From: Promethearchaeota archaeon
GTDB taxonomy: Archaea > Asgardarchaeota > Lokiarchaeia > Sigyniarchaeales > SOKP01
Assembly: GCA_019057865.1 (NCBI GenBank)
Contig: JAHLWP010000020.1
Span: 1 to 64,000, forward strand
Direction: 5' to 3'
DNA: 64,000 nucleotides
This document shows, in pieces, positions 31,735 through 38,605 of the stretch. A program made the position numbers and the translations under genes. How positions within the stretch are numbered: the first letter of the stretch is position 1; each line of letters starts with the position of its first letter. Below the pieces are notes generated by a model. The model made no database searches and was not told the DNA's origin. It worked only from the letters and a program-made list of their open reading frames with translations.

Positions 31735-32589
31735 ATGAGTAAAAGTACATTTAATCAATTTAGGGGAGACGTTAATACTGAAAGAATAAAATATATCGCT
31801 GACCCTCAGCTAAGAAACATCGTCAATGTATCTATAGCATTAGGTAGACCACTCCTAGTGAAAGGAGAACCGGGAACTGGGAAGACCCTTCTATCTCATG
31901 CTATTGCTGAAGCATTAGGAAAGCGATTGATTATCTGGAATATAAAAAGCACTTCTGAAGGTATTGATGGATGTTATATGTATGATACTGTCCAACGTTT
32001 AAATGATAGCAGATTTGGTAGTGAAGATCGAAATGTAGATAGCATAAAAGATTATATAACCTTAGGACCTTTAGGAGAAGCGTTTGCTTCTGATGAACAA
32101 GTTGTTTTATTAATAGATGAAATTGATAAAGCAGATATCGAGTTTCCTAATGACCTTCTACAAGAATTGGATGTAATGGAATTTTATATAAAAGAAACTA
32201 AAGAATTTGTAAAAACAAAAACACGACCTATAGTGGTTATTACCTCTAATAATGAAAAGGAACTGCCTGATGCCTTTTTAAGAAGATGTGTATTTCACTG
32301 GATTGAATTTCCTTCCAAAGACTTTATGGCAGAAATTTGTAGGCTACATTACCCTAACTTAAAGCAAAACCTATTAGATCAATGTTTACAGCATTTTTAT
32401 GCATTAAGAGCTATAACAAAATTAAGGAAAATGCCGTCTACATCTGAACTTCTTGACTGGATAGGTGTTCTATTAAAAAGTGGTATTACAATAGATGAAG
32501 TTAAGGAGAAAATTCCGTTTTTGGGTGTGTTGATAAAGAAGGAGAAAGATTATGAAGTTGTTTTAGATAAGATAAGATTCCCAACATAA
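31735..32589 (+). CDS. MoxR-family AAA+ ATPase
   Basis: Walker A GEPGTGKT, Walker B LLIDEIDKAD and ELPDAFLRRC. Confidence 0.92.
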   Translation: MSKSTFNQFRGDVNTERIKYIADPQLRNIVNVSIALGRPLLVKGEPGTGKTLLSHAIAEALGKRLIIWNIKSTSEGIDGCYMYDTVQRLNDSRFGSEDRNVDSIKDYITLGPLGEAFASDEQVVLLIDEIDKADIEFPNDLLQELDVMEFYIKETKEFVKTKTRPIVVITSNNEKELPDAFLRRCVFHWIEFPSKDFMAEICRLHYPNLKQNLLDQCLQHFYALRAITKLRKMPSTSELLDWIGVLLKSGITIDEVKEKIPFLGVLIKKEKDYEVVLDKIRFPT

Positions 32590-32598: not shown

Positions 32599-34365
32599 TT
32601 ATTTAAAAATATTAAATTTAACGCTAAATTTTTCTTCTATTTTTTTAACTATCGCTCGCATTTGGGTTGTATTGCTAATGAAAGGATATTTTCTCCATAA
32701 TTCTGGTATTCTATATTTCTTGTTCTGATTTGATAGTTTAATAATGTCTTGAATGAATTCAATATGTTTTAATAATAATTGTTCCATAGATTCTTTATAT
32801 TCATCATTATTTAGTAAGTAAGAAAGACGTTCTAATTGTAAAACTTTATTCTGATTATCTTTTTCAGTTTTAAAGCTTAATTCTTCATTATTAATATTAT
32901 ATTTTAATTTTTCAAGTACTTTTTCATTATTAATATCAAATTCTGCCCTTTTTATAATATTGTAAATAGATATGGAAATAATTTTTCGTTTTTCCGTACC
33001 TAGAGTTTTGATTTTCCCATTTTCAGCTATTATATTCTTATTATTCTCATACCAAGTTTTAAAGCCATTCTCACCATTAATTTCATATTTTTCATATTCT
33101 TCCTCATTAAATACCAAAAAGAGATATTTTAATATTGTTTTTTGATCAATGGGAGTTTCTTGGAATTGTTCTTTAACTTTATTCAGATTTCCTAACTTAA
33201 TAAACAACATTTTCAGTTTTTCAGCGAACTTTTTTGAATAATGATGCTTGTGGTAAGCTAGAGCTTTCTCTATGGCTTTCTCAATATTACTATTGTTAAT
33301 TTGTAAATCGAATTTTTTACATATTCCCTCTAAATACTCAAGATACTCAATCGAGAACTTTCTATCATTTGGATCTAGAAAATCTTTCTCAATTTGGCTT
33401 TTAATAGCTTCTCTAATTTTTTTAGAGGCATTTAAATATATTAAAGTAATCCCCCAATATTTTCGCCTATTTTTATCTTTCCATTTCTCAGGATTAACAT
33501 GTTCTAAAAATTTATTAACATCAGTCTTAGAACTAATGATAACTAAATAATTATACTTCTTATCCTCTTTTCGGAGATATTGATTAACTTTACTTGTATT
33601 TATACCTAATTTTTCACTTAATTGTTTGAAATTTTCGACTAAAGGTTTTGACGCATTAACAAAAGAAATTCTGAAGCTCCTATCCTTTTTACTAATCCAA
33701 ATACTCCCATCTGTATCAGTTAACCCTTTTAAGCAAGCCTTAATAAATCTTCTATATCTTTGAGGTATAGATACACGATGTTTCACTTTATCCCCTGGTA
33801 CAAGTCTTGCATTCTTTAATGCGTCGACTCCTGCTAAAGAATAAATCCTTAATTTTATACCCTTAGTCCTTATAGGATCATCATCGTCTTTTGACCAAAT
33901 TTCCTCAGGCTCTTTTTTTAGCATACGTTTCATATATTCTTTTACATACTCTACATAAGAATATTCATCTACTCCATTAAGAGACATAATAATCCCATAA
34001 TTCTCTTCATTTATATTACCATCTCCAAGCATAATTGACAAAAATTCAGCGGTCTCTTCATTTTCTTCAAGTTCGATTTTTTCACCTATTGGTGAATTTC
34101 TTTTATGAACTATTGGCTTTCCATATAATTTTTCTAATCTCTTGAAAACCTTATAAGGAATACTAGAACCTGCCAATGCATTAGAGATTGTATTTTTGTG
34201 TCCACCAATAATAATTCCGATTTTATAATCTGGTAGGTTTTTATTTGGATATTTTGCTCTTATTTGGTTGCAAACGCTTCTTAACCAATCTGGTTCAATA
34301 ATTACACATTCTTCAAGTCGATCATATACACCTGATCCTTTTTTAATAAAATTAGCACTCAACAT
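32599..34365 (-). mobile_element. Free-standing double-motif LAGLIDADG homing endonuclease gene
   Basis: AEFLSIMLGDG and ACLKGLTDTDG motifs; no intein splice motifs; flanked by the duplicated moxR 3' end. Confidence 0.8.
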
Positions 34366-35621: not shown

Positions 35622-35810
35622 TCAAATGGTTAATTCTTATAAATATTAAACACCTCTTAAAAATTTAGCATATACCTATATTAGATGATAATTCTATAAT
35701 ATTGATCAATAATAAAACCGAAACTTATCGCAAATGTTTATTGAATTTTTTTATTACCTAAAAGAAAGATTACCAGTAAATATTACAGAAAAAATAAATG
35801 AAATTGAAGC

Positions 35811-36014
35811 TTATTTCTTTAACTTCGCGAAACATTCATCGCAAAAAAAAATTCTTCGGATTTTAGTAGCATTCCAAACCATATGACCTGACTTATGCTT
35901 CGTTTCGCAACCCCAACACATCTTAAATACTTTAGTATCAACAAGATATTCATCTTCAGCATTGAATTTATCATCTTTTATTATCTCCTTATAACTTTTC
36001 AATTTCCTTAGCAA
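35811..36014 (-). CDS. Small Zn-finger-like protein
   Basis: CWGC...CDEC in 67 aa; TTG start. Confidence 0.5.
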   Translation of the reverse strand: MLRKLKSYKEIIKDDKFNAEDEYLVDTKVFKMCWGCETKHKSGHMVWNATKIRRIFFCDECFAKLKK

Positions 36015-36837
36015 CTCAATATTTTGATAATTTTAAATAAATATTCACTATACAGATTATATAATAAAAATCAGTATAGTAATTTAAGGATTGTGAATAA
36101 TCATTCAAAAAAACCTTTTTTATTCTATATCTCTCTCTTCATAAAATTAATTAAGAAAATATTCTAGATTAAATTTTAAGAAAAAAATTTTAAAAATAAC
36201 ACAAATAAGCAATAAGACCTTTATTTATAAAAGCTAAGACTTAAAAGCCAGATAATAACAAAGGAAACTAACTAAAAATTTACTTTAAAAATATCTCTGC
36301 TAGAAATAGGCATTGCTTTACTAATAGGTGGAATAATTTATTGGGGTTTTATACTCCTTAGAAGTGTCTATATTTCTATTTTTTAAACATTTTAAATATT
36401 TTTTTTTGATTAAAATAACCACTTTTTTCGATTTGTACATAAAATATAACAAACTAAAAAATTACTTATCATACAATTAACAAATTTTTCTATTTATAGT
36501 ATTAAATCAATCGAACATTATTCAATAATATATACTTGAGAATTCGGATAAAAGCAAACTTAACAAATCTCATTCAGATGACTTTATCGTATTATATAAT
36601 GGAACTTTTACCTATTAAATTATGTAAATAAAAAATTTCTTTGAAGAAGAAAGGTTAATAGATTACACAAATAGTACAATCTACACTTTATATTTTATTT
36701 ATAGACTCTTTTTTATCAATGAAATTATTAAGATTATAGGGATTATCACCAAATATTTAACCTCAATCTGTACAAAAACCTATATTACTTGTTTAATTTT
36801 ATATTATTGATCAATAATAAAAAGTAAAACATTCTAT

Positions 36838-38291
36838 ATGTTTATCGAATTTTTTTATTATTTAAAAGAGAGATTGCCGGTAAGTATTACAGAATATATG
36901 ACCCTAATGGAAGCCCTCAATAAAGGGCTTATCCACAATATGGTCGAGTTTTATTACATCTCACGCTCGATTTTATGCAAAAATGAACATCATTTTGATA
37001 TCTATGATATTGCGTTTGCTAATTTTTTCAAGGATAAATTGGTAAATTTTCCTGAAAATATTAAACAAGAAATATGGGATTGGCTCAATAAAGATATCAC
37101 CTTACCTGAGTTAATAGAAGGCTTACAAATACTTTTAAGAGAATATCAACAATACGTAAATATCGAGGATTTACAACAGTTTCTTGAAGATTTGTTGGAA
37201 AAATATGGTGAAGATGCAGAAAAATTACTATTAATAAACGCCCCAGATGAGATAAAAGATGAAATTTGGAACTGGCTACAAAAAAATCTTGATCTCTCAG
37301 AAATGGATGCCACCTTTCAAGAGATGGTAAGCCAATTTTTTGACCTAGAAGATTTACAACAACATTTCGAAGAATTGATGCAAAAACAAGATGGAGAACA
37401 TAATTTTGGTCATCACTGGATTGGAACTCAAGGTCAATCTCCATTTGGGCATTCTGGTCAAAATCCAATGGGTATGAGAGTCGGTGGGTCTTCAGGTATG
37501 CGAATGGCTGTCCAAATTGCCCAAAAAAGAATCTTTAAAGATTATAGAAAAGATATCGTGCTGGATACAAGACAAATTAAAGTAGCATTAAAAAGACTCA
37601 GAAAACTCGAAGAAATTGGCAAAAAGGATGAGCTAGACATTGACGAGACAATTGATAAAACCGCTAAAAATGGCGGTGATATTGAAATTGTGTTTAATAA
37701 ACGCAGAAAAAACGACGTTAAACTTCTTCTCTTAATGGATGTCGGTGGAAGTATGACACCATATGCCCATTTAGTTAATCTGTTATTCTCGGCTGCCAAT
37801 AATATGTCACACTGGAAGGATTTTAAATACTATTACTTTCACAATTGTTTATATGAAAGTTTATATCATAATGCAAAAAGAAATCCTGAAGAATCCACCC
37901 CTTTCGAAGAATTTTTAAAGAAGTTTAATAATAAATATAAAGTAGTCATAGTGGGCGACGCTGCGATAATCTAATCGATTTCCGGTTGATCACAAGGGCG
38001 TCCTGGGAACTTTCTGAAAAATATGGGTCAATTTATTATTACCATAGGAATGAGATGCCTGGAATTTATTATATCAAAGAATTAACAAGACATTTTAAAA
38101 ATAATGTTGTGTGGTTAAATCCAGAACTTATTAGACCTGAATGGGCACCCTGGACTCGAAAGATAATTTCCAGTATTATTCCTATGTTCGATTTGACTGT
38201 AGAAGGGATTGAAGAAGCCATGGATTATTTAAGAAAAGGTGGAAAAGATATGTATACAACTGTGCAGTTGCTTAAAGGATTAAATTATTGA
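36838..38291 (+). CDS. vWA (CoxE-like) MoxR partner protein, split by a 29-nt insertion (474 aa if spliced)
   Basis: MIDAS-like MDVGGSM and YFHNC motifs. Joining 37967 to 37997 gives VGDAAMASWEL, continuing to VWLNP. Confidence 0.85.
37968..37996 (+). other. Candidate bulge-helix-bulge (BHB) mRNA intron, 29 nt
   Basis: GACGC/GCGUC exon stem, 4-nt central helix UGCG/CACA (one C.A mismatch), 3-nt bulges AUA and AGG, and an intron hairpin. Canonical cuts restore the frame. Confidence 0.72.
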
Positions 38292-38605
38292 TTAAAGACA
38301 TTTAAATTTCAAAAGAAAAACAAGCTCTGAATCTCTAAAATTTTGATATGTTCTCAATTCACAGATATTAGATAAAAGAATCAATGAGATTAAAGAAGCA
38401 ATGTAAATTTCTGCAGATTTAATAGACTCTTCTCTCTCAGTTAACCATAGAAAAATTAAGCTGAAAATCATTAGAAATACAAGGAATAACACTATAATCC
38501 AAAAAAATTGCGAAAAAATAAGCATGCCTTCTGATAAATTCTTGATTTTATCTATATTTTTAAAATACAATATAAAAAGTTAGAGCATTTTAAAAAACAA
38601 TAACA

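Follow-up and report, generated by a model that had tools for sequence, protein, structure and literature searches.

A probable bulge–helix–bulge mini-intron in the coding sequence of a vWA gene of a Promethearchaeota archaeon

An intron of the bulge–helix–bulge (BHB) type was reportedly described in the pre-mRNA of crenarchaeal cbf5, in work of Watanabe in 2002 and Yoshinari in 2006. The intron of this gene, which encodes a pseudouridine synthase, measures 16–44 bp in Crenarchaeota and is cut between the second and third residues of each bulge (PMC2738675); it depends on a hetero-oligomeric EndA and has been both gained and lost (Yokobori 2009, PMC2738675), and by the account of that paper pre-mRNA splicing was confirmed for no archaeal gene besides cbf5 (PMC2738675). 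A 2025 paper on EndA cites only the cbf5 work (PMC12397907), and a 2026 preprint on Asgard tRNA introns leaves mRNA introns unmentioned. The subject of the present analysis is a 29-nt insert in a CoxE-like vWA gene of a Promethearchaeota archaeon, which lies in a 64,000-nt stretch of DNA (contig JAHLWP010000020.1, positions 1 to 64,000, hereafter the window). The insert is most likely a BHB (tRNA-type) intron in the vWA coding sequence that is spliced by EndA and RtcB and is mobile, as DNA, through gene conversion.

The likeness to cbf5 is considerable, i.e., a short intron in coding sequence, a BHB with an equal cut rule, a location in a highly conserved motif, a patchy distribution and an apparently hetero-oligomeric EndA. 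The differences lie in the host gene, a CoxE-like vWA gene, and in the phylum, Asgard/Promethearchaeota; moreover, cbf5 has cDNA evidence, whereas splicing of the vWA intron is predicted from DNA; the vWA intron also sits in recombination patches and has counterparts in other genes of the same genome. Archaeal tRNA and rRNA BHB introns have the hBHBh′ geometry in common with the vWA insert, as well as the predicted use of EndA and RtcB, and non-canonical tRNA introns are typically mini-introns of about 30 nt. In contrast to the tRNA and rRNA introns, the host RNA here is an mRNA, the exon half of the motif also encodes Ala-Ala-Met, and its wobble positions covary with the intron.

The vWA gene occupies 36838–38291 of the forward strand and is interrupted by 29 nt at 37968–37996 (Table 1). 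Its first open reading frame (ORF; 36838–37974, 378 aa) matches Pfam VWA_CoxE and stops at the TAA at 37972–74, and the protein resumes in another frame at 37998 and runs to the stop codon at 38289–91. Deletion of 37968–37996 joins AT to G, so that D-A-A-M-A-S-W-E-L is read (context VGDAAMASWELSEKYG), and at 474 aa the joined product matches the modal homolog length. When 5.8 billion proteins were searched, most of the homologs recovered were 474 aa long and came from Asgard metagenome-assembled genomes (MAGs), labelled Promethearchaeota, Hod-, Hermod-, Thor- and Odinarchaeota. At the junction, the intact 474-aa homologs read VGDAAMASWEL, i.e., VGDAAMASWELTEKYG, which is identical to the predicted joined product, and Met377 is invariant among 29 aligned homologs. 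An earlier note on this DNA had described the frameshifting insert, the ATG rebuilt at a 37967^37997 junction and the 474-aa product; its coordinates and sequence hold, its product agrees with the intact homologs, and these do align across the predicted junction. A whole-genome search showed the gene to be single-copy in its own genome, with no second copy. Public gene calls list the intron-bearing copies as products of 376–380 aa (P0041, P0043, P0044, P0046, P0066, P0069 and P0070), and the seven homolog clusters of that length end in VGDAAI(I/G/V).

An AlphaFold model of the intact homolog P0001, with a mean pLDDT of 52, was used for the order of the secondary-structure elements only. In this low-confidence model, the junction falls directly after strand 367–372, which is beta4 of the vWA fold, and exon 2 supplies the alpha/beta fold with two more strands and three helices; the unspliced RNA would give a 378-aa protein without the last third of the vWA fold. 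A sequence search of the PDB gave no match, and Rfam over 37700–38300 gave nothing relevant.

The RNA of the window copy can be laid out as a helix, a 3-nt bulge, a 4-nt helix, a second 3-nt bulge and a hairpin, with an exon helix of 5 bp and an intron hairpin stem of 8 bp, which is the BHB fold that the earlier note had proposed, including a central helix with three of four positions paired. Both the outer helix and the hairpin appear in a free minimum free energy (MFE) fold, but not the 3-bp central helix. The fold of this one sequence is not decisive when taken alone, and the case therefore rests on comparison. Copies were gathered from the DNA of the seven clusters called short, from the GTDB genome locus L005, from twelve metagenome contigs found with a degenerate pattern and from the window. 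This gave 20 insert-bearing copies including the window, of which 16 are distinct; the others are 19 contigs with 15 distinct sequences. In every copy the insert follows immediately after GCN GCN AT and is 29, 30 or 33 nt long, and it introduces a stop in all copies except L152.

The 16 sequences were aligned (alignment A2) under a hand-written BHB structure, in which 88.4% of the cells are paired, versus 36–46% when the partners are slid by 1–3 columns. Double changes, i.e., on both sides of a pair, occur in 10 of the 24 pairs, and the covariation score is 0.361 versus 0.166 in shuffles (none of 500 as high) and 0.05–0.10 with slid partners. The central helix is paired at all four positions in 14 of the 16 sequences, with 96.9% of its cells paired; its position 1 (pair 12–48) is U-A in eight sequences and C-G in eight, and its position 4 (pair 15–45) is U-G in six, A-U in five, U-A in three and G-C in two. 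The exon strand of this helix is made up of the wobble bases and the GC of two Ala codons, so that the covariation links synonymous codon positions to bases of the intron. Changes occur in the hairpin stem as well (AACCG/CGGUU, AAGGG/CCCUU, GAUCG/CGAUG), and the unconstrained MFE fold of copy L081 is itself helix–bulge–helix–bulge–helix. The orthologs thus keep the BHB pairing with compensatory changes. It was also observed that the pentaloop is always A-N-U-Y-C (AUUUC, AAUUC, ACUUC, AGUUC or AAUCC; 16 introns, A2 columns 28–32) on a variable stem.

The enzymes that would be needed are encoded by the same genome (4.26 Mb, 99.7% complete), which has one RtcB and two EndA paralogs (PF01974/TIGR00324). 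RtcB lies at G000 C75:110910 and the EndA genes lie at C71:81890 and C69:38574. The paralogs are 29% identical to each other; at the aligned catalytic position one of them has no His, and they are apparently of the alpha/beta heterotetramer type, an EndA type that accepts relaxed motifs (PMC5829648). The pre-mRNA would fold into the BHB, with the two exon-1 Ala codons paired to four intron bases as the central helix and with the 5-bp exon–exon helix and the intron hairpin flanking it. EndA would then cut at 37967/68 and 37996/97, past the second nucleotide of either 3-nt bulge, and RtcB would ligate the exons, whereby the ATG of Met377 would be restored and the 474-aa protein translated; the excised 29-mer would probably be circularised. 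Five hallmarks of a BHB intron were found, i.e., the central helix, the flanking helices, predicted cuts whose product equals the intact homologs, compensatory change and the host enzymes, and the earlier claim of an EndA/RtcB-type BHB intron within a gene that encodes a protein has passed every comparative test that was run. The vWA mRNA is very probably spliced.

Several observations count against this conclusion. The central helix of the window copy (UGCG/CACA) contains one C·A and is only three-quarters paired, and the z-score of the single-sequence fold, −1.77, is not significant. The proximal exon helix is only 2–3 bp long in most relatives (helix 2: 59% paired); most of them have a distal GUGGGC/GCUCAC helix, which the window lineage, with its perfect 5-bp proximal helix, does not have, and the short proximal helix together with the distal one is a relaxed motif. 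The conserved flanks GTGGGCGAY and GAGCTCAC could stem from common descent of the patch instead of a constraint on the RNA. Copy L152 could be translated unspliced too: its 30-nt insert (L152:2400–2466, minus strand) is in frame and without a stop, and the unspliced mRNA would carry a 10-residue insertion that replaces Met377. The argument for splicing was built by comparing DNA; a search of sequencing runs turned up no RNA run with this sequence.

The alternatives were weighed against the same data. An artefact of assembly or sequencing is scarcely conceivable, as nothing but the small size of the insert speaks for one. In the probable source run, contigs span the insert at a depth of 220 with zero differences, two unrelated studies carry it without gaps (X5, 2015, record 12, and X6, 2020, record 19, the latter about 91% identical), another X5 contig has a 30-nt variant, and homologous inserts are present in 19 other assemblies; the DNA does contain the insert, a point that the earlier note had put forward for checking. 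A joint in an X5 contig that skips 37893–38028 (depth 3) was considered as an intron-less form and rejected as probably belonging to another organism. A recent pseudogene, formed by a small insertion, would agree with the stop two codons past the break and with the gene being uninterrupted in 22 of the 22 other same-genus species genomes that have it. Such a pseudogene is nevertheless highly improbable in view of the same-site insert in lineages whose proteins are as little as about 60% identical, of an insert that itself changes by compensation, and of exon 2, which is 292 nt long in every complete intron-bearing copy and has a median pairwise ratio of non-synonymous to synonymous substitution rates (dN/dS) of 0.03 (35 synonymous and 8 non-synonymous changes between the window and L112).

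In another reading, the gene is split or truncated and the insert a mere spacer, so that a 378-aa protein would be made with a separate C-terminal piece of about 97 aa, or with none. The 376–380-aa products of the public annotation and an in-frame TTG at 37986 of the window favor a split gene, which is unlikely all the same. No ATG, GTG or TTG lies between the intron stop and the junction in 9 of the 20 copies, and not until codon 19 of exon 2 does an in-frame ATG appear; codons 1–19 (ASWELTERYGSIYYYHRNE) are nonetheless conserved, which counts against separate translation of the C-terminal piece. In addition, the break falls within an ATG codon, right after beta4, and a spacer would leave the covariation between exon wobble bases and insert unexplained. 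Ribosomal recoding, either as a frameshift or as a bypass of the insert like that in T4 gene 60, has in its favor that the stop just past the break and the hairpin at the start of the gap resemble a bypass site. It is very doubtful, however, because the three lengths (29, 30 and 33 nt), two of which are divisible by three, would each call for another frame change and so rule out one common frameshift mechanism, and most of the inserts have in-frame stops. Neither the constant frame change nor the matched codons of a programmed frameshift or bypass were found; the take-off and landing codons are mismatched in several copies (e.g., GCU and GCA in L083), and a bypass product would be without the invariant Met377. 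A covarying 4-bp helix between 3-nt bulges is the ruler of EndA and no bypass signal.

The distribution of the intron is patchy. In a tree of 89 vWA proteins, at least eight gains or losses were counted on well-supported branches alone, and the gene is uninterrupted at L001, which is the nearest genome locus and whose protein is 96% identical over exon 1. Stops in the same-order homologs G029 and G043 were considered as introns and rejected, as they are merely gene ends. Alleles with and without the intron are mosaics. L005, with the intron, and L009, without it, are 96.9% identical over nt 1–960 and 100% identical over nt 1300–1422, versus 82% over nt 960–1130 and 77% over nt 1130–1300. In L009, patch and backbone are equally close to the neighbours L024 and L026 (88–90%), while the L005 patch is remote from these two (76–81% identical) and, on the exon-2 side, 90% identical to the intron-bearing L159. 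This mosaic is the signature of a putative intron gain through import of a foreign patch. L009 (DATKTW010000077.1) carries an Asgard-type vWA gene 97% identical to that of L005 on a contig labelled "Candidatus Nanopelagicaceae bacterium", which is probably mis-binned.

Around the site, foreign patches about 300 nt long are seen in L005 versus L009 and likewise in L112 versus L204, and similarity shifts at or near the intron site both in the latter pair and between the window and L001. Copies L081 and L110 are identical for 720 nt and diverge about 180 nt before the site, with intron types of 33 and 30 nt, respectively. Since the intron lies within short foreign patches, it appears to move by recombination; at the DNA level it behaves as a small mobile element, which gene conversion carries from allele to allele along with a few hundred bases of the flanking exon.

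A patchy distribution with co-conversion of the flanking exon is what is seen for homing-type mobile introns, some of which depend on free-standing endonucleases, and the likeness extends to a site in an invariant motif and to a LAGLIDADG gene 2.5 kb away. Unlike homing introns, the vWA intron encodes nothing, being too short for a nuclease, and no endonuclease is linked to the site. The LAGLIDADG gene is a free-standing ORF of 588 aa with one LAGLIDADG_3 domain (32599–34365, minus strand), 2.5 kb upstream of the vWA gene, between an AAA+ ATPase gene (31735–32589) and a gene for a 4Fe-4S protein, and ranks first among the 17 LAGLIDADG matches in the genome. A close ortholog was not found in the genomes that hold L001 (the nearest intron-less relative), L005 and L054, and for this reason no link between the LAGLIDADG gene and the intron is claimed. 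As to what sets off the recombination, it is possible, if rather doubtful, that the vWA intron is one of many BHB mini-introns spread genome-wide over Asgard protein-coding genes, in this genome among others those for ribosomal protein S12 and acetyl-CoA synthetase, that such introns invade invariant coding motifs via homing-like conversion by free-standing endonucleases, e.g., the upstream LAGLIDADG protein, and that they are tolerated through splicing by the tRNA machinery.

The splicing of HAC1/XBP1 mRNA by IRE1 and tRNA ligase or RtcB offers an analogy only, in that a short mRNA intron is excised by proteins, without a spliceosome, and the downstream frame changes. IRE1 cuts twin stem-loops with 7-nt loops, whereas the cut sites predicted in the vWA insert lie in 3-nt bulges across a 4-bp helix. 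The suggestion in the earlier note of a regulated, HAC1/XBP1-like splicing of a stress-chaperone mRNA was not borne out, as the intron is patchy, is missing in close relatives, sits in recombination patches and is like the inserts in housekeeping genes described below. The description of the vWA protein as a MoxR partner likewise found no support; the AAA+ gene is 4 kb upstream with two unrelated genes between, and only generic AAA models matched. The pattern agrees with a mobile mini-intron, tolerated or selfish, whose splicing is constitutive.

Similar inserts were sought in the same genome with a scan that asked for an ANUYC-loop hairpin in a BHB setting and for two long ORFs that become one when it is removed; it found 17 matches, versus 4–7 with permuted loops. 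Three of the genes were verified with Pfam, those for ribosomal protein S12 (rpS12), acetyl-CoA synthetase (ACS) and thiolase; in each, the two exons align to successive stretches of a single Pfam profile and the insert is BHB-shaped (Table 1). Their introns have the A-N-U-Y-C loop type, for which the scan had selected. That the gene of an essential ribosomal protein has a like insert makes splicing in this host much more credible. Of the search for other BHB-broken genes that the earlier note had envisaged, this loop-specific version showed enrichment, whereas the generic censuses were too noisy: BHB with ORF merging gave 114 matches versus 84–91 with slid partners, too noisy to count, and a loop-agnostic census gave 26 matches, mostly noise in a 29%-GC genome.

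Further candidate mini-introns were noticed in a 4Fe-4S protein gene (G000 C14:43378–43412, plus strand), in a Zn-dehydrogenase-like gene (CG[I]CGSDVH; G000 C60:~11343, minus strand) and in a gene next to a LAGLIDADG match (G000 C48:~46556, plus strand), the last with the hairpin core CGAUUUCCG as in the vWA intron. ARAGORN called only 18 tRNA genes in the 99.7%-complete genome, several of them with introns, and most host tRNA genes are probably too interrupted for it to call.

Table 1. Coordinates of the interrupted vWA gene, of its predicted RNA elements and of similar inserts in the same genome
Feature	Position	Strand	Remarks
Exon 1	36838..37967	+	376 codons and AT of the Met377 codon; VWA_CoxE; 93% identical to intact P0001 residues 1-378
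BHB mini-intron (predicted), 29 nt	37968..37996	+	A + 22-nt hairpin + CACA + AG; TAA in frame 37972-74
Exon 2	37997..38291	+	G of ATG, 97 codons, stop; 93% identical to P0001 residues 377-474
Predicted junction peptide of spliced product			GDAAMASWELSEK
Outer exon helix, 5′ strand GACGC	37957..37961	+	5 bp with 37998-38002
Central 4-nt helix, exon strand UGCG	37962..37965	+	includes the wobble bases of two Ala codons; partner is intron CACA
5′ bulge AUA	37966..37968	+	predicted cut 37967/37968; ATA invariant in 16/16 sequences
Intron hairpin, AUUUC pentaloop	37969..37990	+	95-100% paired, 7 pairs with double changes (helices 4 and 5 of the alignment)
Central helix, intron strand CACA	37991..37994	+	
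3′ bulge AGG	37995..37997	+	predicted cut 37996/37997
Outer helix, 3′ strand GCGUC	37998..38002	+	
Ribosomal protein S12 (rpS12)	G000 C27:25028-25066	-	36-nt insert; exons match profile 2-51 and 56-108
Acetyl-CoA synthetase (ACS)	G000 C82:546-580	-	32-nt insert; AMP-binding 6-211 and 215-321
Thiolase	G000 C7:63447-63478	-	29-nt insert; Thiolase_C_1 9-48 and 52-142

At the other end of the vWA gene, its promoter region and first 26 codons (36770–36915) are duplicated about 1.1 kb upstream (35664–35811, 77% amino acid identity), and the two 5′ duplicates flank an AT-rich insert that holds a minus-strand ORF of 67 aa with CxxC...CxxC (35811–36014). A similar upstream duplicate of the vWA 5′ end is present at L001, and the arrangement has the look of an insertion that entered the 5′ end of the gene long ago.

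The vWA locus adds a well-supported Asgard case to a field in which, among the searchable papers, only cbf5 is confirmed (PMC2738675). The gene and the phylum are new, and the case brings evidence for recombinational mobility and an unusually clear covariation between wobble positions and intron. Considered alongside the rpS12, ACS and thiolase genes, the locus suggests that the tRNA machinery may routinely splice mRNA in these organisms. The truncated calls of 376–380 aa also mean that gene catalogues and metabolic reconstructions from Asgard MAGs under-call intact genes. If the wider proposal of genome-wide homing mini-introns were true, routine protein-catalysed mRNA splicing and intron mobility would be found in the closest prokaryotic relatives of the eukaryotes.
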